A DNA stretch of 64,000 nucleotides, from NCBI GenBank assembly GCA_965250285.1, contig OZ252299.1:1792001-1856000 (forward strand), written 5' to 3'. Shown one piece after another: positions 19-22,515 of this stretch. This stretch comes from Myxococcota bacterium (lineage in GTDB: Bacteria; Myxococcota_A; UBA9160; UBA4427). The stretch's first letter is position 1. Each line of letters begins with the position of its first letter. Made by a program: the position numbers and the translations under genes. The notes beneath the pieces were generated by a model. The model had not been told where the DNA came from. It worked only from the letters and a program-made list of their open reading frames with translations, and did no database searches.

Positions 19-1500
19 TCAGCCCGGGTACGAAGCCGGCACGGCGATGACCTTCGTCTCGAGGTGCTCCTCGAAGCCCATCACGCCGTTCTCGCGCCCG
101 ATCCCGCTCTGCTTGTAGCCGCCGAAGGGCGTGTCGGGATGGAACCACTGGCTGCCGTTGACGCTGAGCGTGCCCGTTCGGATCCGGCGTGCCACGGCCA
201 GCGCGCGGTCGACGCTCGCAGAGCTGACGGCCCCGGACAGGCCGTACTCGTTGTCGTTGGCGATCCGCACCGCATCGTCGTCGTCCTCGTACGGGATCAC
301 GCAGAGCACGGGGCCAAAGATCTCTTCTTGGGCGATCGTCGACTGGGGGTCGACGTTCGCGAACAAGGTGGGCTCCACGAAGTAGCCCTTCTCGAGGTGG
401 GCCGGGATGCCCCCGCCCACGACACACTCGGCGCCCTCTTCCTTGCCCTTGTCGATGTAGGCGAGCACGCGCTCCTGCTGGCGCTTGCTGATCTGGGGCC
501 CCTGCATGTTGCCCGGATTCGTGGGGTCGCCGTAGTTCCAGCCCGAGAAGGCGGCCTTCAAGAGATCGACGGCCTCGTCATGTCGCGCGCGGGGCACCAG
601 CATGCGGGTGGTGATCGCGCAGCCCTGGCCACCGTGTACGCAGGTCATGGCGCCCATCGGTACGACCGCCTCGAACGCGGCGTCCTCGAGGATCACGTTC
701 GCGCTCTTACCGCCGAGCTCGAGGAAGATCTTCTTGAGCGTCGGCGCAGCGCACTCGGCGATGCGCCGGCCGGTGGCGGTCGAGCCCGTGAACGACACGA
801 GGTCGATGCGCGGATCCGTCGAGAGGATCTCACCCGTGAGGTGGTCGGCCGACGCGACGATGTTCACGACGCCCGCCGGGATGTCGGTCTTCTCGGCGAT
901 GATCTTCGCAATGTGGGTCGCCGACCACGGCGTATCAGGGGCCGGCTTGAGCACGACGGTGCAGCCCGACGCAAGCGACGGGGCGATCTTGGCGATGTTG
1001 AGATAAAGGGGAACGTTCCAGGGCGTGATGGCACCGACCACCCCCATCGCTTCACGGCGCAGGATACGACCCTGCGGGTTGTCCATGAAGTCGACGTCGG
1101 CCATCCGCGTCTCGTACTCGTACGAGCCGGCGAGATCGGCCCAGTACGTCACCATCTCGATCGGATTGTCGACGTGCATGAAGCCCGTCAGCGCGAGTGG
1201 AGCGCCCGCCTCGTGCACGACGATCGCCCTCAACTGCTCCTTCTCTTCGATCAAGCCGTCGTAGAGCTGACGCAGGCACTTTGCACGAAACGCGTGATTC
1301 TCGGCCCAGTCGGTCTCGTCGAAGGCGCGCCGTGCGGCCCCGACGGCGTTCAGCATGTCGTCCTTGGTGCCATCGGGCGCCACGCCGAGCAGGGCCTCCG
1401 TGCTCGGGCTCACGTTGTCGAACGTGTTGCCATTGCTCGCGTCGACGAGAGCCCCGTCGATCAGGTTCTGCGTGCCGGGTGCGAGAGCTTCGAGAGACAT
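19..1500 (-). CDS. Aldehyde dehydrogenase (NAD(P)+)
   Basis: Motifs ITPWNVP, FTGSTATG, LELGGKS, GQGC (catalytic Cys), EEIFGPV, PFGGYKQSG. Start reset to the ATG at 1500 (MSLEAL), preceded by AGGAGG. Confidence 0.93.
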   Translation of the reverse strand: MSLEALAPGTQNLIDGALVDASNGNTFDNVSPSTEALLGVAPDGTKDDMLNAVGAARRAFDETDWAENHAFRAKCLRQLYDGLIEEKEQLRAIVVHEAGAPLALTGFMHVDNPIEMVTYWADLAGSYEYETRMADVDFMDNPQGRILRREAMGVVGAITPWNVPLYLNIAKIAPSLASGCTVVLKPAPDTPWSATHIAKIIAEKTDIPAGVVNIVASADHLTGEILSTDPRIDLVSFTGSTATGRRIAECAAPTLKKIFLELGGKSANVILEDAAFEAVVPMGAMTCVHGGQGCAITTRMLVPRARHDEAVDLLKAAFSGWNYGDPTNPGNMQGPQISKRQQERVLAYIDKGKEEGAECVVGGGIPAHLEKGYFVEPTLFANVDPQSTIAQEEIFGPVLCVIPYEDDDDAVRIANDNEYGLSGAVSSASVDRALAVARRIRTGTLSVNGSQWFHPDTPFGGYKQSGIGRENGVMGFEEHLETKVIAVPASYPG

Positions 1501-9920: not shown

Positions 9921-10940
9921 TCAGTCGAGGAGGTTCTGCCTCGGGTCACCTCGATCGAAGACGTTGAATCGCAGATTGCGGTCGCCCGAAACCTCCTTCC
10001 AACCGATCCGCAGCCCGCGCTGCTCAGCCATGCGACGAGCTGCGAGGTAGACGTCGAAGCTGTCGGGCCAGACGAAGAAACGCACGTACTGCCGGCGTGG
10101 ATTCAGCGCGTCGAGCGCCGCCGCGAACCGGCTGTTTGGGCCGAGTTCGGCCTCGGTCTCGCCCGGAGCAATGTCGCCCGTCGGCACCAGCTCGGCATTG
10201 AGCGAATCGTCGAAGATCCAGCGGTACCCCTGGTCGCCGATCTGCTCCTTCTTGAAGTGGTTCACGATCCACGGCACGTCGGAGCGCTCGATCAGCATGT
10301 TCTCGCGCACAGACCCCGTCGCGTCTCGCATGCCGGCGATCAGGACGTCACCGAGATCGTCGAGGTCGAGCACGTGCACCTCGCCCCCACGGCAGAAGAA
10401 GAACACGCGCTCGAGGCCCGCGGGCACGGGTCTCGGATCGGGGAGTCGGATCGTGATCGGCTCGCCCGCGGCGGCGGGTTCGGCCAGGATCGCCAGCAGC
10501 TTCTCGCGCTCGCCCTCGGCGCGCTTCACCTCGCCCTCGAGGCGCGCCACCTCGACCTTCAGCTGCTCGCGAGCCTCGAGGCTCGGCTGGTCGCCCGCAG
10601 AGGCGCTCGGCCCCGGCAGCGACTCGAACTCGTCGAGCAGCGGGCGCGCATCGGCCAGACGCAGGCCCGCGGTCTGTTCGGCCTTGAATCGCTCGAGCTC
10701 CGACCGCGCCATCTCGATGTCGGCCCGCACGTCGTCGCGTTCGCCGACCAGCTCGGCGAGATCGTTCGGGGTCGCCGCTGCGCGCTCCCCGGCGGTCGCG
10801 CGAATGCGTTCGACGGCGTCGCCGAGCGAGAGCTGCGTCACTGCGACGAGCACGACCAGAATGCCGACGACGTTCGCCATCGTATCGAGCAGCGAGTCGA
10901 TGCTCTGGGCGTCTGCCCGCCTTCGCGCAGCCCGCGCCAT
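9921..10940 (-). CDS. Single-TM coiled-coil protein, ExbD/TolR-like partner of the MotA/TolQ/ExbB protein (Asp-containing TM)
   Basis: Basic N-terminus, TM SIDSLLDTMANVVGILVVLVAV, coiled-coil stalk, C-terminal YVRFFVWPDSF domain. Start overlaps the upstream stop (TGATG). Confidence 0.7.
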   Translation of the reverse strand: MARAARRRADAQSIDSLLDTMANVVGILVVLVAVTQLSLGDAVERIRATAGERAAATPNDLAELVGERDDVRADIEMARSELERFKAEQTAGLRLADARPLLDEFESLPGPSASAGDQPSLEAREQLKVEVARLEGEVKRAEGEREKLLAILAEPAAAGEPITIRLPDPRPVPAGLERVFFFCRGGEVHVLDLDDLGDVLIAGMRDATGSVRENMLIERSDVPWIVNHFKKEQIGDQGYRWIFDDSLNAELVPTGDIAPGETEAELGPNSRFAAALDALNPRRQYVRFFVWPDSFDVYLAARRMAEQRGLRIGWKEVSGDRNLRFNVFDRGDPRQNLLD

Positions 10941-11755
10941 CAGCTGCCGAGCTCCGAGTCGGGCACGTCGAACAGGCTGAAGTCGAGCTCGCCGTCACCC
11001 GGCAGAGGCAGCTTCGCGAAGGGCACGTCGAGGCGAGAGGCTGCGACGGCGGCCTTGTTGAAGGTCTCGATGCCGTCCGGTCGGATCAGAAAGACCAGCT
11101 TGGTGTTGCGGAGCACTCGAATGCGGCGCAGAAATCGCTGAAAGTCGGCGCCGCGCAGCAGATCTTCGGTCGGTACGCGGTATGTGAAGTCGCTGCGCGT
11201 GGTGTGCACTTCGACGTAGCCAGCCGTGCACTCCGCGAAGTACGGGCGGTAGGCCGGGCCGACGCCGGCCGGCGCGATGCGCATGCTCAGATCGCGCTTG
11301 GCCTTGTCGCGCGCATCGACGTCGGCCCGCAGGCCCTGGGTCTGCGCCTCGAGGCTCGCGCGCTTGGCCTGCAATCGGTCGCGCCGGGCGACGACGCGCG
11401 CACTGGCCGCAGACGCGCGCCGCTCGTCGACCAGTCGCTCGAGCTCTTCGAGCGAGATCTCGGGGCTCAGCCCCGCACCATCGAGGCGCGCGAAGAGCTC
11501 GTCCTGGTCGGCCTCGCTCGCCTGCACCGTGTCGAGCTGCTCGTCGAGGTCCTCGAGCTCCTGCTTTGCTTCGACGAGCGCCTGCTGCGCACGGTCGATG
11601 CGCTCGCCCAGCCGGACCCCTGCGAGCGCGCTGCTGCCGACCTGGCTCACCGCCATCGATGCGAGGATCAGCGTCAGCGCACCGATCACGCACGCCAGGA
11701 CGGAGAGGAACGGAAAGAGCGAGACCTCGAGGCCTTCGCGTCGCCTGCGCGCCAC
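10940..11755 (-). CDS. Single-TM coiled-coil protein, ExbD/TolR-like partner (Asp-less TM)
   Basis: MARRRR, TM EVSLFPFLSVLACVIGALTLIL, coiled coil, C-terminal LVFLIRPDG domain; directly downstream of the MotA/TolQ/ExbB gene. Confidence 0.7.
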   Translation of the reverse strand: MARRRREGLEVSLFPFLSVLACVIGALTLILASMAVSQVGSSALAGVRLGERIDRAQQALVEAKQELEDLDEQLDTVQASEADQDELFARLDGAGLSPEISLEELERLVDERRASAASARVVARRDRLQAKRASLEAQTQGLRADVDARDKAKRDLSMRIAPAGVGPAYRPYFAECTAGYVEVHTTRSDFTYRVPTEDLLRGADFQRFLRRIRVLRNTKLVFLIRPDGIETFNKAAVAASRLDVPFAKLPLPGDGELDFSLFDVPDSELGS

Positions 11756-11770
11756 GCCCGCGCCCCTCGG

Positions 11771-12862
11771 CTAGCGCCGCCGCTCGAGCGCGGAGAGGAG
11801 CTTCTCGGCCACGCGATCGGCGACGCGATCGATCGTCGCGTCATCGACGTCGCCGCGGGGCTGTGCCTCACCCAGCCGGCGCACGAGGTGACGCGCGCAG
11901 TAGTCGTCGATCGCCGCGAGATAATCCTCTTCGGCCTTTTGCAGAGAGCTCGTCGGAAACATGATGAAGAGACTCATGACGAGCGCGAGCAGGGTCGTGT
12001 CGAACGCGATCCCCAGGCCGCTCGTGACCGAGCCGATCGACTCCTTCATGACGTCGAGATCGCCGGCGGCCGCGACCGAGTCGGAGAAGCCCGCCACGGA
12101 GGCACCGATGCCGAGCACGGTGCCAATGAAGCCGAGGATCGGCACCGCCCAGATGAAGACGCGCAGCATCGTGTAGCTCGACTCGACGGCGTTCTCGTCG
12201 TTCTGCGCCTGGGCGGCGAGCTGCTCGACCACTTCTTCGGCGCTCTCGCGCGCGGCGTAGTGCTCGAGCGCGCGCGCAATGCGCCCGACCAGGTAGCCAC
12301 GGCGCTGCTCGTCGGGCAGCGTGCGCAGGTAGCTGAGGAAGGCGGGCGCGTTCTCGGGCGTGATCGGGTCACCGATGCCCCGTGGCAGCAGGTCGAGGCC
12401 GAGGGCGCTGCGCTGGCGGCTCAGCACGACCGCCTTCGCGACGAGCATGGCCGCTGCCCAAAACGACAGGAAGCTCACGACGTAGGGGACCCAGCCGCGG
12501 GCGCCGAGCAGCTGTCCGAAAGGCGTGTCGGCAAGCGGGCGCACGACGGCGAGGTAGAACACGGCGGTCAGGGCGAAGGCCGCGAGACCGGTCCAGCTGA
12601 GGGGCACGTCGGTCGTGCCGCCGGTGGCGCGCAGCCCGGGTCCGGCGAGCTCGCGCAGGGGCTCGGGCTGCCCGGGGAGCACCGGCCCAGCCTCTTCATC
12701 CGCCGCGCGGGTTTGGCCGACGACGGCCAGCGGAGCATCGCTCGGCAGGAACGAGTGGCCGCAGGCCTGACAGTCGAGGGGCGCTCGACTGCGCGGGTCG
12801 GTCACCGCGTTCTCCGCGCCGCAGTGCGGACAGATCGCGGCGGTCGATGCACGTTCGGCCAA
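11771..12862 (-). CDS. MotA/TolQ/ExbB proton channel family protein with N-terminal zinc ribbon
   Basis: VPILGFIGTVLGI and GLGIAFDTTLLAL signature helices; two further N-terminal TM segments; CPHC...CQAC. Confidence 0.85.
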   Translation of the reverse strand: MAERASTAAICPHCGAENAVTDPRSRAPLDCQACGHSFLPSDAPLAVVGQTRAADEEAGPVLPGQPEPLRELAGPGLRATGGTTDVPLSWTGLAAFALTAVFYLAVVRPLADTPFGQLLGARGWVPYVVSFLSFWAAAMLVAKAVVLSRQRSALGLDLLPRGIGDPITPENAPAFLSYLRTLPDEQRRGYLVGRIARALEHYAARESAEEVVEQLAAQAQNDENAVESSYTMLRVFIWAVPILGFIGTVLGIGASVAGFSDSVAAAGDLDVMKESIGSVTSGLGIAFDTTLLALVMSLFIMFPTSSLQKAEEDYLAAIDDYCARHLVRRLGEAQPRGDVDDATIDRVADRVAEKLLSALERRR

Positions 12863-12983: not shown

Positions 12984-14303
12984 ATGGCGTCCTCACCGCA
13001 CGATTCCGATGCCGCTCAGGCCCGCCTGGTGCTCGGCCTGTCGGGCGCCGCCAGCGAGGCCGAGCTGCAGGCGGCCTACTGGGCGCTCCGTGCGCACATC
13101 GAGTCGCGCGCGGTCACCAGCGAAGATCCCGGCTTCGTCGCCGCGCGTGTCGCCGAGCTGCAGCAGCTCACCGAGCGGCTCGCCCTCGCCCTCGACGTGC
13201 CGCCCGACTCGCTGCCCTCGCCGCGCATCGAGGCCGTGCAACCCGCTCCGCGCCAGGGCTGGCCGGTCTGGCTCGGCATCGGGGGGTTCGTCGCCGCGCT
13301 GCTGATCGGCCTCGTGTACTGGCTGATGCGAGCCCCGAGCGACGCGACCGACGCATCACCGCTCGCCGCCGTCGCCCAGGGCGACCCGCCTGGGCGACTC
13401 GTCTTTGCCGAATCCCCCACGGCCGCCCGCTTCACCGTGCTCGACGCGGAGGGCACGCGTGTCGTGCGAGCGGGCATCGTCTCGTCCGACCCGGTCGAGC
13501 TGGCGCCGGGCCAGTACTCGGTCTGGCTCTCGGCGCTGGCCTGCGACGCCAGCCGACACAACACGATCCGCGTCGAGACCGACGCCGACATCGAGCTCGT
13601 CGCGCCCGAGTGCACGCGCACGCTCGCGCTCGTGCTGCGCTCGGACGTGACCGGTGATCGCGTGCGCATCGACGGCGAGGACGTCGGCAGCACGGGGCCG
13701 GGTGCGCACATCCTGCAGCCTGGCTCGCACGAGATCGCGATCGAGCACGGCGGGCGGGAGGCGTGGCGCGCCGAGATCGAGGTCGGCTCGGACGACCGGC
13801 TGACGCTGCACGCCGATCTGGCCGCCAAGGCGAACGCAGCCGACGAGCCGGAGGGCTCGCCCGACGCCGGCGACAGCGCGGAGACAGCGCGGCCGCCGCC
13901 TCCGCCGGGCCGCACCGCGGGGCCGCCGCCTCGGCCGCCCGGCTCGAGTGGTCGGCCCGGTGGTACGCGCGAAGGTCTTCCCGGCGGCACGAGCAGTGAA
14001 TCACCGGTGCGCGATACCCAGGTCGCCGGCTCGCGCAGCTGGCACGATGCCGTGCGCCGCCGCTTGATCGACAAGTATGACGAGAACGGATCGCGCAGCC
14101 TCGACACCACCATCGAGATCGCTTCGATTCCCTGCAGCGAGTGGCTCGCGATCGAGAGCCAGTACGAGACCGGGGGGCTGCAGGTGCCGATGACCCGGCT
14201 CTACGGTTTCGACGGCTCCGAATGGGTCGAAGGGGCGCTCGGAGTCGAACGCGGGCTGCGCGACTTCACGTATCGGCGCATGAAGGAGTGCGGGCTCAAG
14301 TAG
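12984..14303 (+). CDS. Membrane-anchored PEGA-domain protein with J-like N-terminus and Pro-rich linker
   Basis: VLGLSGAASEAELQAAY (J-like, no HPD); TM WLGIGGFVAALLIGLVYWL; PEGA-like VRIDGEDVGSTG...LQPGSHEIAIE; PPPPPG linker; EF-hand-like DENGSRSLD. Confidence 0.65.
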   Translation: MASSPHDSDAAQARLVLGLSGAASEAELQAAYWALRAHIESRAVTSEDPGFVAARVAELQQLTERLALALDVPPDSLPSPRIEAVQPAPRQGWPVWLGIGGFVAALLIGLVYWLMRAPSDATDASPLAAVAQGDPPGRLVFAESPTAARFTVLDAEGTRVVRAGIVSSDPVELAPGQYSVWLSALACDASRHNTIRVETDADIELVAPECTRTLALVLRSDVTGDRVRIDGEDVGSTGPGAHILQPGSHEIAIEHGGREAWRAEIEVGSDDRLTLHADLAAKANAADEPEGSPDAGDSAETARPPPPPGRTAGPPPRPPGSSGRPGGTREGLPGGTSSESPVRDTQVAGSRSWHDAVRRRLIDKYDENGSRSLDTTIEIASIPCSEWLAIESQYETGGLQVPMTRLYGFDGSEWVEGALGVERGLRDFTYRRMKECGLK

Positions 14304-17371: not shown

Positions 17372-18037
17372 TCAGAGTGGGCAGTGCTGGCGCAGCAGCT
17401 CATCGACGCGCTCGCCATTCAGGCTGCGGTGCTCGGCGAGCAGCTGCGACAGCTCGTCGACCGCTTCCCAGTTCGCCCGCAGCAGGCGCAGCGCCTCCTC
17501 CCAATACTCGCGGTAGAAGTGCGTCGCCTGTCGGTCGGCCCCGACCAGGCCGGCCAGGCGCTGCAGCTCGAGGCGGTCCGCCACCGCACGATCCCGCACG
17601 AACGCGGGCTCCATCTCGAGATCGGGCGGCGCAGGCCGCGCGCGACGCGCCTCGCCCTGGGCTGCGTAGAGGCTCTCCGCAGCGAGTCCGGCGTAGGTCA
17701 TCACACCGTAGGCGTCGACGATGCCGTCGATCGAGACCGGGGCCGGCGTGCCGCGCCGCGGGACACCCGCCGGCGGTCGGCACGAGATCGGCACCGGCAT
17801 GAGCGAGTAGGTCGGGATCCCCGGCTGCGCTTCGTCCATGAGCTCGAGTCCCTTCACGACGTGTTCCCCGTAGAGGAGGAAGCAGACCACCGAGTGTCCG
17901 GCCTCGTGGATGGTGCCCGCGTTGGGCGCACGGTCGATCTTCGAGGCGGGCGTCGGGGTCGGCGTGGGGGTCGAGGTCGGGCGAGCGGGAACGGCTGCGG
18001 TCACGAAAATCTCCAGGTCGAAGTGGCTCCGGCGCAC
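17372..18037 (-). CDS. Stand-alone peptidase M41 (FtsH protease-domain)-like protein
   Basis: HEAGH, YAGLAAE, ALRLLRANWEAVDELSQLL...LNGERV; no AAA or TM domain. Start uncertain. Confidence 0.7.
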   Translation of the reverse strand: MRRSHFDLEIFVTAAVPARPTSTPTPTPTPASKIDRAPNAGTIHEAGHSVVCFLLYGEHVVKGLELMDEAQPGIPTYSLMPVPISCRPPAGVPRRGTPAPVSIDGIVDAYGVMTYAGLAAESLYAAQGEARRARPAPPDLEMEPAFVRDRAVADRLELQRLAGLVGADRQATHFYREYWEEALRLLRANWEAVDELSQLLAEHRSLNGERVDELLRQHCPL

Positions 18038-18671: not shown

Positions 18672-19505
18672 TTGAAAGCCTTGATTCACGTCTTCGGACA
18701 GCGCGGCCGCACCGGCATCGCCGCCGGCGTCGGAGCGCTCGCACTTGCCGCCGGGGCCACCGTCGCCTCGGTCGCACTCGTGGCCGAGCCCGTCGCGGCG
18801 CAGTCGCAGACGCTCGACTCCGCGATTACGACCAACGCCGAGGGCAACGCCGGCTCCCTCGCGTCCCAGAAGCGCATCGATCAGATCGCCGATGCCACCG
18901 ACGACATGGCGAGCTCGTACCGAGCGAGCCTCGAGCAGATCGAGTCGTTGCGTGTCTACAACGCGCAGCTCGAGAAGCTGATCGCCGCGCAGGAAGCCGA
19001 GCTCACCTCGCTCGACAATCAGATCGGTGAGGTCACGGTCATCGGGCGTGAGATGACGCCGCTGATGCTGCGCATGATCGACGCACTCGAAGCCTTCGTC
19101 GATGCCGACGTGCCCATGCTGCTCACCGAGCGCCGCGACCGAATCGCCGAACTGCGCGACCTGATGGATCGCGCCGACGTCGCGGACAGCGAGAAGTATC
19201 GCCGCATCACCGAGGCCTATCAGATCGAGAACGAGTACGGCCGCACGATCGAGGCCTACAACGGCGACGTCGTGATCGACGGCGAGACCCGCACCGGCGA
19301 CCTGCTCCGCGTCGGCCGCATTGCGCTGATCTACAGCGCGCTGGACGGCAGCGATGTGCGCGCGTGGGATCAGCGCCAGGGTGACTGGGTGCCGCTCGAC
19401 GCCGACGCACGAGACACGATCCGCAAGGGCATCCGCATCGCCCGCAAGCAGGCCGCGCCCGACCTCGTCCGCCTGCCGATCCTGGCCCCCGAGGAGGCGA
19501 ACTGA
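18672..19505 (+). CDS. DUF3450 family periplasmic protein (TtpB-like, TonB2 system)
   Basis: Signal peptide, coiled coil, PLMLRM, EKYRRITEAYQIENEYGRTIE, LRVGRIAL, IARKQAAPDL. Start reset to TTG 18672. Confidence 0.85.
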   Translation: MKALIHVFGQRGRTGIAAGVGALALAAGATVASVALVAEPVAAQSQTLDSAITTNAEGNAGSLASQKRIDQIADATDDMASSYRASLEQIESLRVYNAQLEKLIAAQEAELTSLDNQIGEVTVIGREMTPLMLRMIDALEAFVDADVPMLLTERRDRIAELRDLMDRADVADSEKYRRITEAYQIENEYGRTIEAYNGDVVIDGETRTGDLLRVGRIALIYSALDGSDVRAWDQRQGDWVPLDADARDTIRKGIRIARKQAAPDLVRLPILAPEEAN

Positions 19506-20899
19506 TGTCCCGCTCCACCCAGCTCATCGTGGCCCTGCTGGCCGCGGTCATGGTCGCGCTCGCGCCCACGGCCGTCGTCTTCGCCCAGGCCGATCAGAAG
19601 CTCACCCTCGACGAGCTGCTCGCGAAGGTGAAGGAAGGCTGGCGCGCCGAGCGCGCCGCCAATCGTCAGCGTGAGGCCGAGTTCAAGGCCGACCGCGCCA
19701 ACCAGAAGCAGCTCTTGCAGCAGGCGCTCGCGACCCAGGCCAAGGAAGAGGACCGCAGCGCCGAGCTCGAGGACCTCTTCGCCGCCAACGAGGTGCGCAT
19801 CGCCGAGCAGGAGAAGGCCCTGCAAGAGAAGCTCGGCAGCCTCGGCGAACTCTTCGGCGTCGTGCGGCAGGTCGCGGGTGATACCAAGAGCCAGGTCGAG
19901 AACTCGATCATCAGCTCGGAGTTCCCCGACCGGCAGGCCTTCCTCGACCGACTCGGACAGAGCAAGAAGCTGCCCCAGCTCGAAGACCTCGAAGGTCTCT
20001 GGTACGCGCTGCAGCAGGAGATGACCGAGCAGAGCAAGGTCGTGCGCTACAACGCGCCGGTCGTGCTCTCGTCGGGCGAGGAATCCGAGCTCGAGGTCGT
20101 CCGCATCGGCGCGTTCAACGCCGTCGCCGACGGCAAGTACCTGACCTGGCAGGACCAGGTGCAGCGACTCGCCGAGATCGGTCGCCAGCCGGCCGCGAAG
20201 TACGTCGACACCATCGGGCCCTTCGTCGCCACGACCACGGGCTTCGCCGAGTTCGCCGTCGACCCCTCGCGCGGCACGATCCTCTCGCTGCTCGTCGATA
20301 CGCCGACGTTCCGCGAACGCCTCGAGTTCGGCGGCGTGGTCGGCATGATCATCATCATCCTCGGCAGCTTGACCTTCCTGCTGGCGGTGGTGCGGACGGT
20401 CATGATCTTCATCGTCAGCCGGAAGGTCGCCGCGCAGAAGAAGACGTCGACGCCGAACAAGGGCAACCCGCTCGGTCGACTGCTCCAGGTCTACGCCGAC
20501 AACCGCAACGTCGACACCGAGACCCTCGAGCTGAAGCTCGAAGAGGGCCTGTTGCGCGAGACGGCCAGCCTCGAGCGCTTCCTGTGGCTCATCAAGGTCG
20601 TTTCGGCGGTCGCCCCGCTGCTCGGCCTGCTCGGTACGGTCACCGGCATGATCAACACCTTCCAGATCATCACGCTGTACGGCACCGGTGATCCGAAGAT
20701 GATGGCGGGTGGTATCTCTGAGGCCCTGGTCACGACGATGCTCGGCCTGTACGCGGCGATCCCGCTGGTGCTGATGCACAGCGTCGTGTCGAGCCTGTCG
20801 ACGGGCGTGACCAACGTCCTCGAGGAGCAGACCACGGGCCTGATCGCCCAGCAGTCCGAGGCCGAAGTGCCCGCGACGCCTCGGCCGGTCGAAGGCTGA
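19505..20899 (+). CDS. Large MotA/TolQ/ExbB family protein (TtpC-like)
   Basis: Signal peptide, periplasmic coiled coil, VDPSRG, APLLGLLGTVTGMI, MAGGISEALVTT. Confidence 0.9.
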   Translation: MSRSTQLIVALLAAVMVALAPTAVVFAQADQKLTLDELLAKVKEGWRAERAANRQREAEFKADRANQKQLLQQALATQAKEEDRSAELEDLFAANEVRIAEQEKALQEKLGSLGELFGVVRQVAGDTKSQVENSIISSEFPDRQAFLDRLGQSKKLPQLEDLEGLWYALQQEMTEQSKVVRYNAPVVLSSGEESELEVVRIGAFNAVADGKYLTWQDQVQRLAEIGRQPAAKYVDTIGPFVATTTGFAEFAVDPSRGTILSLLVDTPTFRERLEFGGVVGMIIIILGSLTFLLAVVRTVMIFIVSRKVAAQKKTSTPNKGNPLGRLLQVYADNRNVDTETLELKLEEGLLRETASLERFLWLIKVVSAVAPLLGLLGTVTGMINTFQIITLYGTGDPKMMAGGISEALVTTMLGLYAAIPLVLMHSVVSSLSTGVTNVLEEQTTGLIAQQSEAEVPATPRPVEG

Positions 20900-20922
20900 G
20901 ACGGGGAGCGGAGACAGCGACC

Positions 20923-21438
20923 ATGGACATGATTCTCGAGCCCATCGGCGACTTCATGACTGCGGGCGGCGACGTGCTGAAGCTCATCTTCGCCGTCACG
21001 CTGGCCATGTGGACGCTGATCCTCGAGCGCACCTGGTACTACCGCCTTCAGCTCCCGAAGGAGCTGAAGGTGGTGCTCGAGAAGTGGAACGCTCGAGAGG
21101 ATCAGACCAGCTGGGGCGCGCATCAGATCCGGGATCTGTACATCTCGGAGACCTCGATCAACGTGAATCGCAGTCTGCCGATGATCGCGACCCTCGTGGC
21201 CGTGTGTCCGCTGCTGGGGCTGCTCGGCACGGTGACGGGGATGATCGAGGTCTTCGACGTGATGGCGGCCGCGGGCAACAGCAACCCGCGCGCCATGGCG
21301 TCGGGTGTCTCGAAGGCCACGATCCCGACGATGTCGGGTCTTCTCGCGGCCCTCTCCGGCCTCTACTTCTCGGTCCAGCTCAAACGCTATGCGAACAAAC
21401 AGACCGATCAGCTCAGCGAGCACCTGATCCACAGGTAA
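20923..21438 (+). CDS. exbB: ExbB/TolQ proton channel protein
   Basis: CPLLGLLGTVTGMIEVF, MASGVSKATIPT. Confidence 0.88.
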   Translation: MDMILEPIGDFMTAGGDVLKLIFAVTLAMWTLILERTWYYRLQLPKELKVVLEKWNAREDQTSWGAHQIRDLYISETSINVNRSLPMIATLVAVCPLLGLLGTVTGMIEVFDVMAAAGNSNPRAMASGVSKATIPTMSGLLAALSGLYFSVQLKRYANKQTDQLSEHLIHR

Positions 21439-21492
21439 GCCCCTTCGAACCGAATGCGGCTCACTTCGAGTGAGCGAGAGTCAGGGACGAAC

Positions 21493-21897
21493 ATGCGCCG
21501 TAGACGAACGCGAGAGCAGGAAGAGAGCGAGATCGACATCACCCCGATGCTCGATGTCGTCTTCATCATGCTCATCTTCTTCATCGTGACCGCCAGCTTC
21601 GTGAAAGAGGCCGGCATCGACGTGAACCGCCCCGACGCCTCGACCGCCGAGGTGAAGGAGCGCGGCAACATTCTCGTCGCCATTACCGAGAACAATCAGG
21701 TCTGGATCGACCGTCGCCAGGTCGACGTACGCTCGGTGCGGGCCAACATCGAGCGGCTCCGAGCGGAGAATCCCGAGGGTGCGGTCGTCGTCCAGGCAGA
21801 CAAGAACTCGAAGAACGGGCTTCTGGTCAAGGTGATGGATGCGGCACGGCTGGCCGGCGTCGAGAACGTGTCGCTCGCCGCGACCCAAACGGAGTAG
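21493..21897 (+). CDS. exbD: Biopolymer transporter ExbD
   Basis: EIDITPMLDVVFIMLIFFIVT with the conserved Asp; VVVQAD, VMDAAR. Start reset to ATG 21493. Confidence 0.93.
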   Translation: MRRRRTREQEESEIDITPMLDVVFIMLIFFIVTASFVKEAGIDVNRPDASTAEVKERGNILVAITENNQVWIDRRQVDVRSVRANIERLRAENPEGAVVVQADKNSKNGLLVKVMDAARLAGVENVSLAATQTE

Positions 21898-21906
21898 CGC
21901 TCCAGA

Positions 21907-22515
21907 ATGGCCATCCGCAGCGTCAGCGCTTTCCTGCTCGCCATGGGCATCACCATGGGGCTGTTCTTTCTCATGCAGTCGCTGATCTCGCAGGATCCGA
22001 GCGTCGGCGAAAAGCGCAAGAACAAGTCGATCGAGTTCGTCCGAATCAAGCGAGAATCGACGCTTCAGGAGAAAGAGCGCAAGCTCCCCGACAAGCCCAA
22101 GAAGGAAGAGCCGCCGCCGCCCCCGCAGCTCGATTTCTCGACGCCGGACGACGCAGCGGGCGAGACCATGTCGATCGCGGCGTCGGGCATCGACACGGGT
22201 GTCAGCCTCGGCACGGGCATGGGCGGCCTCGCCACCGCCGACAGCGACGTCGCGCCGATGGTGCGCGTGCTCCCGCAGTACCCCGCTCGCGCCCAGGAGC
22301 GTGGCATCGAGGGCTACGTGATCGTCGAGTTCACCATCGCCGTTGACGGGACAGTGAAGGACGCCATCGTCCTCGACTCGCAGCCCTCGAAGATCTTCGA
22401 TCGCGCGGCCCTGCGCGCCATTCGCAAGTGGAAGTACAAGCCCAAGGTCGAAGACGGCCAGGCCGTCGAGCGATCGGGCGTTCGCGTGCGCATGCCGTTC
22501 GAGCTCGAGAAGTAG
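21907..22515 (+). CDS. tonB: Energy transducer TonB
   Basis: N-terminal TM, Pro-rich linker, C-terminal YPARAQERGIEGYVIVEF...FDRAALRAIRKWKYKP. Confidence 0.92.
   Translation: MAIRSVSAFLLAMGITMGLFFLMQSLISQDPSVGEKRKNKSIEFVRIKRESTLQEKERKLPDKPKKEEPPPPPQLDFSTPDDAAGETMSIAASGIDTGVSLGTGMGGLATADSDVAPMVRVLPQYPARAQERGIEGYVIVEFTIAVDGTVKDAIVLDSQPSKIFDRAALRAIRKWKYKPKVEDGQAVERSGVRVRMPFELEK

Follow-up and report, generated by a model that had tools for sequence, protein, structure and literature searches.

Models of the 5:2 ion motors (MotA/TolQ/ExbB superfamily) rest on two equivalent, alternating aspartates, and homodimers are the rule among the ExbD, TolR and MotB partners, with TolR/ExbD homodimer structures solved. 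According to PMC11946911 (partial text), the axle aspartate is conserved in all 5:2 motors and is essential to them. In this study, a trio of adjacent genes, A, B and C (Table 1), was analysed in a window of 64,000 nucleotides of Myxococcota DNA, the window being the whole stretch examined. Like the superfamily, the trio has a PF01618 ring subunit (A) with conserved proline and threonine pore residues; unlike it, one axle subunit (B) is without the axle aspartate, having serine instead (S18 in 84/84 homologues), and the other (C) has it (D19, 84/84). The architecture of A-B-C is probably motor-like. The trio is real, conserved and apparently undescribed; no description of it was found in a search of the open-access literature, with subscription journals and the supplements of PMC12204202 outside its reach.

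Table 1. Coordinates of the genes, model regions and related loci discussed (window positions, unless a locus label or residue numbering is given)
Feature	Coordinates	Strand	Remarks
Gene A, ring subunit, MotA/TolQ/ExbB family	11771..12862	-	TTG start, 363 aa
A-B spacing	11756-11770		15 nt
Gene B, axle subunit without aspartate	10940..11755	-	GTG start, 271 aa
Gene C, axle subunit with aspartate	9921..10940	-	ATG start, 339 aa
Divergent single-TM PEGA protein	12984..14303	+	PEGA E 5e-9
221-aa gene, HEAGH motif	17372-18037		
ExbB-ExbB-ExbD-TonB set	19505-22515		
B model (residues)	14-93, 102-154; about 159-252		Helices; TolR-fold head
C model (residues)	to 153; about 159-324		Helical stalk, RLPDPRP linker; TolR/ExbD-like head with insertion
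Stalk-less trios with inserted gene	L196:5821-7911, L198:6040-8031, L202:8956-10923, L211:9328-11325		
A 'AFDTT' trios	L252:3756-6708, L255:2-3371		
AFETT operons	L181:764-10508, L186:996-10875		

The tight coupling of the operon claimed in the original prediction was confirmed by the ORF coordinates, the C start overlapping the B stop in TGATG downstream of the short A-B gap. Hydropathy profiles, in which A showed four TM peaks and both B and C a single one, agreed, together with the ORF lengths, with its description of a four-TM protein and two single-TM proteins, and the related C-terminal motifs that it named, FLIRPDG in B and FFVWPDS in C, were aligned with each other. The separate, normal TonB system that it placed nearby was also present in the same window (Table 1). 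In the host genome (6.25 Mb, 95% complete) the trio was single-copy, and separate ExbB/ExbD sets and TolB were found. A promoter and terminator scan of the locus gave hits at chance level only.

Subunit A matched PF01618 above the cut-off (E 1.3e-9). The pore residues P241, T248, T289 and T290 and D288 of the last TM were invariant in 74/74 A sequences. Alignment with TolQ mapped P241, T248 and T290 to P138, T145 and T178, and T289, D288 and I285 to A177, I176 and E173, respectively; by TolQ numbering, T248 and T290 form the threonine ring. The N-terminus carries a CxxC...CxxC zinc ribbon, which was absent from the original prediction and whose zinc-ribbon domain matches were sub-threshold, and the C-terminus here is a short helix. 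The ribbon was absent in 16 of the 109 A ORFs compared, and the C-terminal tail varied in length from 16 to 403 aa. If PomA T186 is equivalent to TolQ T178, as we take it to be, A T248/T289/T290 resemble the PomA Na+ triad, a mapping made through TolQ with PomA itself outside the alignment. In PomA, the three threonines T158/T185/T186 constitute the Na+ filter (PMC10374538, partial text). By this weak analogy the driving ion may be Na+, a reading weakened by the TT pair that the ExbB within the window also carries.

B and C are paralogous (hhalign 97.7%), with B S18 aligned with C D19. The TM of B (about 13-36) contains SLFPFLS, with S18 at the ExbD/MotB Asp position, and the TM of C (about 15-36) holds D15 and D19; D15 and T20 were invariant in 84/84 C homologues, as was D19. 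At the same site the ExbD of the window reads P-M-L-D and B reads P-F-L-S. This Asp/Ser asymmetry between C and B was absent from the original prediction. No Pfam family beyond coiled-coil noise was detected in B, C or their 84+84 homologues, and none of these matched ExbD, PF02472, OmpA or TonB domains, in keeping with the expectation of an operon free of OmpA and the TonB family; a vWA domain was likewise not matched in the 168 B/C proteins. Searches of the B and C profiles against PDB sequences yielded coiled-coil noise only, and an ESM Atlas search returned hypothetical-protein clusters only. The stalk lengths of B (150-180) and C (140-165) were correlated (rho 0.78, 43 pairs, kin and duplicates counted).

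In the AlphaFold2 models of B and C (pLDDT 88 and 84; pTM 0.53 and 0.57, respectively), both proteins consisted of long helices followed by an alpha/beta head. The B head was most similar to TolR 5by4 (Z 8.3, rmsd 4.3, 87 aligned; Foldseek probability 1.0, E 6e-3). For the C head, Z was middling against both TolR (Z 5.0, rmsd 3.6, 93 aligned) and ExbD 8pek (Z 4.7, rmsd 3.4, 87 aligned), and a Foldseek search with C gave no clear match. These predicted models bear out the ExbD-like C-terminal domains that had been proposed. The predicted complex C118-339:B100-271 scored 0.75, with at least 96% contact agreement between runs and partner pLDDT of at least 83, and the best control scored 0.19; the mark applied to this score was reached by 116/157 solved pairs and 2/215 mismatched pairs. 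The predicted contacts lie in the stalks, which pair as a heptad-patterned parallel coiled coil, in the Pro-rich linkers and at the FLIRPDG/FFVWPDS motifs. The periplasmic halves of B and C are thus predicted to form a heterodimer, with the qualification that solved TolR/ExbD homodimers exist and the score may partly reflect such likeness.

Among 151 class genomes searched with the B profile, matches were found in 40 of the host family's 47 other genomes and strong matches in 2 sister-family genomes. The seven family genomes without B also lacked A, and C was absent from 5/5 of them tested, both in searches without an internal positive control. Scanning GTDB with the A alignment (26/64 parts covered) gave at least 586 relatives, the best 80 of which were examined; these overlap partly with the loci from the class-genome search, and their titles were mostly Myxococcota, Planctomycetota, Verrucomicrobiota and Lentisphaeria. 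The order A-B-C was present in 30/30 class loci among the matches listed and in 68 of these best 80, the others being cut by contig ends (5) or having no C adjoining B (7), and the three genes are in this respect co-conserved as the original prediction supposed. In one genome checked with C away from B, C was kept elsewhere. A split operon, with A-B apart from C, was seen in a Gimesia-containing clade (L047, L048, L050, L051, L054, L056, L206, L207).

Strong C matches (E <1e-50) were found in at least 4/201 Planctomycetota and at least 3/201 Verrucomicrobiota genomes, and matches of any strength in at least 16/201 and at least 31/201, with the centre genomes counted in. Outside Myxococcota, the subtype is patchy. 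The B profile matched 1766 clusters at E <=1e-10, and named close homologues were mostly labelled Myxococcota; in a quick tree the Myxococcota copies formed one clade, including one Verrucomicrobiota row (98). Cultured Pirellulaceae and Kolteria are among the carriers. A proteobacterial range was dropped from consideration, as the single locus so titled (L055) matches Planctomycetota-sample genomes in gene order. Word searches of the supplements of Planctopirus and Verrucomicrobium transposon papers returned nothing that could be mapped to the trio in the parts covered (PMC10632474, PMC12283558).

The gene head-to-head with A encodes a PEGA protein with a J-like N-terminus (weak DnaJ likeness, E 0.009), the PEGA domain, a Pro-rich linker and a conserved Cys-bearing C-terminal domain. 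It held this position in 18/20 class loci and in 0/64 non-Myxococcota loci, and is a candidate lineage-specific partner of the trio. The C-terminal domain is uncharacterised, with the pattern WH...D-x-D/N-x-S-x-x-x-D...C...GFDG...M-x-x-C-x-L and, by eye, an EF-hand-like acidic loop. A UvrD neighbour was less frequent than the PEGA gene (14/20 class loci). The 221-aa gene, which had no Pfam match at 1e-3, was syntenic in 14/20 class loci. Three other neighbours were considered as members or partners. The downstream acyl-CoA synthetase was rejected, being present in 1/20 class loci; the nearby Ton operon was rejected because TonB was syntenic in 3/20 and ExbB in 6/20 and it has its own ExbD; FGE-sulfatase genes, found in 8/64 non-Myxococcota loci with four from one clade, were set aside. 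PEGA and FGE-sulfatase genes adjoin the TPH-vWA-like loci of other Myxococcota in 4/4 cases (L246, L247, L248, L250).

Weak matches brought up sister subtypes of the trio. In the first, A reads 'AFETT' and Asp is present in both partners, and the trio closes operons with GAP1-N2/GAP1-M and GYF-trypsin genes, GAP1-N2/GAP1-M being confirmed in 4/4 long ORFs tested. The AFETT operons (L187 and L189 as well as those in Table 1) also contain an unannotated protein of ~1000 aa, and often the GYF-trypsin gene. A GTPase conflict-system link for the one-aspartate subtype was rejected, since no GAP1-N2 was found in the host genome; the paper describing GAP1-N2 conflict systems does not mention MotA/TolQ/ExbB/ExbD in its main text, as far as covered (PMC7159879). 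The second subtype, of Planctomycetota, has a long B bearing Ala, and the third comprises short Verrucomicrobiota types without a stalk. In stalk-less Verrucomicrobiota trios a gene of ~650-700 aa, with NHL repeats in 3/4, lies between A and B and possibly encodes a periplasmic partner. The fourth consists of pairs resembling the TPH-vWA motors already published; here A reads 'AFNST', and vWA was matched weakly in one only. In a further trio type, with A 'AFDTT', the first partner is short, with E or A at the Asp site, and the second is long; the L252 partner pair matched no Pfam family. Heads were present in every subtype examined, and wherever the residue could be read, C, as second partner of the A-B-C subtypes, keeps Asp.

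The residues at A288 and at the B axle position were tabulated for 137 trios, with one unreadable row dropped and eight B labels read by eye; L251, L253, L254 and L256, with an A288 Asp and what looks like one partner only, were excluded. In 115 trios A288 was Asp and B lacked it; in 19, B had Asp and A288 was E, Y or N; 3 had neither and none had both. B was without the aspartate in 118/137 trios, having S, A, C, N or E instead. With 2-3 independent pairs and a sign test p of 1, covariation of A D288 with loss of the B aspartate is statistically unsupported; the tree needs only three changes, which makes the pattern a lead rather than a result. The single partner of L254 was read with Asp alongside Asp at A288, which counts against strict compensation.

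We tentatively favour an A5-B1-C1 ion motor with one aspartate, a heterodimeric shaft and periplasmic output, a reading given a little less than an even chance. A, B and C would assemble into an ion-driven complex of the inner membrane in which, by extension from the 5:2 family, five A subunits ring the TMs of B and C. According to the predicted models, B and C would make one parallel coiled-coil shaft with a single ion-binding aspartate, C D19. Ion binding at D19, facing the T248/T290 ring, would drive stepwise movement of the ring relative to the shaft, again as inferred from the 5:2 family; as there is one ion site and no second one to alternate with, the motion is proposed to be of a one-stroke or rocking kind. 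The extended stalk of ~110 helical residues, at 1.5 A per residue and with extended helices assumed, would measure ~16 nm, with which the heads would reach the wall or pass it, as with the GldM shaft; in E. coli the wall lies about 90 A from the inner membrane (PMC11946911, partial text). Stalk-less versions exist (L065, L087 and the short Verrucomicrobiota loci), so reach across the periplasm would be dispensable in some. The shaft would deliver force to a target in the cell envelope, the zinc ribbon of A and its variable tail serving as putative regulatory docks; a periplasmic business end is favoured because heads occur in every subtype and the ribbon and tail vary. No fourth gene common to trio loci across phyla was found, which counts against this reading. 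Since the aspartate is described as essential in 5:2 motors, a complex with a single one may be incapable of turning. A more detailed version is unlikely: a single-cylinder 5:1:1 motor, possibly driven by Na+, in which D288 takes part of the ion path, the serine helix is passive, and the shaft drives an envelope machine common to Planctomycetota, Verrucomicrobiota and one Myxococcota family.

The strongest rival, itself doubtful, is that the same A5-B1-C1 complex uses its shaft as an anchor, gripping either the wall or the outer membrane with its heads, and that the ring of A moves, with a cytoplasmic output, as an envelope-state sensor of the MotAB/ZorAB kind. By sequence, the nearest solved relative of A was the ZorA-type chain 8vvn (E 0.0087; another search, of the A profile against the PDB, gave no match at E 0.01), and PADLOC ZorA2 matched A over the channel region only (E 4.8e-6, below cut-off). 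Long C-terminal tails in many A homologues, the GAP1-N2 conflict operons closed by the two-aspartate sister subtype and the recruitment of MglB by the GltJ zinc ribbon (PMC11135422, partial text) point the same way. Against it, the tail is short here, the ribbon is absent in some lineages and no OmpA domain is present; moreover, with GAP1-N2 lacking in its genome, the single-copy locus keeps stable neighbours such as UvrD, unlike a defence island.

It is improbable that the trio forms a non-rotating complex derived from a motor, be it a gated channel for ions or a tether that spans the periplasm passively. The frequent loss of the B aspartate and the predominance of V, T or I in A homologues at the TolQ E173 position are consistent with this; the invariance of C D19 and the threonine ring is more than a passive tether would need. 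That there are instead separate homodimeric complexes, A5C2 being active and A5B2 inactive or regulatory, is very unlikely, as B:C is predicted to be a heterodimer with matched stalk lengths and B and C are retained and lost together, even though the ExbD, TolR and MotB partners are homodimeric and hetero- or homodimerization of AglQ/S was left undecided in PMC9389320 (partial text).

As a widespread one-aspartate family with two-aspartate sisters, these trios provide a natural test of the need for alternation. They also point to an energised process in the envelope of PVC bacteria and of Myxococcota that are uncultured.

Feature tests led to rejection of the trio as a member of the flagellar stator, Ton, Tol, AglRQS or Zorya systems. 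B and C differ from the MotAB/PomAB stator partner in having no OmpA-type wall-binding domain, and flagellin was not found in the host genome. ZorA5B2 is similar in that the A channel is closest in sequence to a ZorA-type chain and many homologues have a cytoplasmic tail (PMC11946911, partial text); unlike it, the trio has no OmpA-type ZorB and no ZorC/D/E, its axle is predicted to be heterodimeric and its tail here is short, and no Zorya effectors were among the shared neighbours of trio loci. GldLM is a functional analogue, with the periplasm-spanning GldM dimer as the shaft and the key acid on the pentamer, but GldM is homodimeric and no GldK/N is linked to the trio (PMC8986121, partial text). 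With ExbB5D2/TolQ5R2 of Ton and Tol-Pal, the trio shares the threonine pair in the ring and single-TM partners with predicted TolR/ExbD-fold heads, and differs in its two unlike partners, one without aspartate, its long stalks, the fourth TM and zinc ribbon of A and the lack of a linked TonB/TolA gene.

The parallel with AglRQS of Myxococcus xanthus drawn in the original prediction holds for the two differing TolR-like subunits, in a complex also predicted to be 5:1:1, and fails at the axle, where AglQ and AglS are both described as having the aspartate and B has serine; AglQ and AglS also work with GltG (PMC11761067, PMC9389320, partial texts). The trio, in addition, has long stalks and no adjoining Glt genes. 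TPH-vWA-like loci of other Myxococcota score against the A profile. The TPH-vWA motors likewise combine a TolQ-like gene with a heterologous pore-inserting pair, for which direct force drive is proposed; they have vWA heads and aspartate in both partners, whereas the trio has predicted TolR-fold heads and one aspartate (PMC12204202, partial text).
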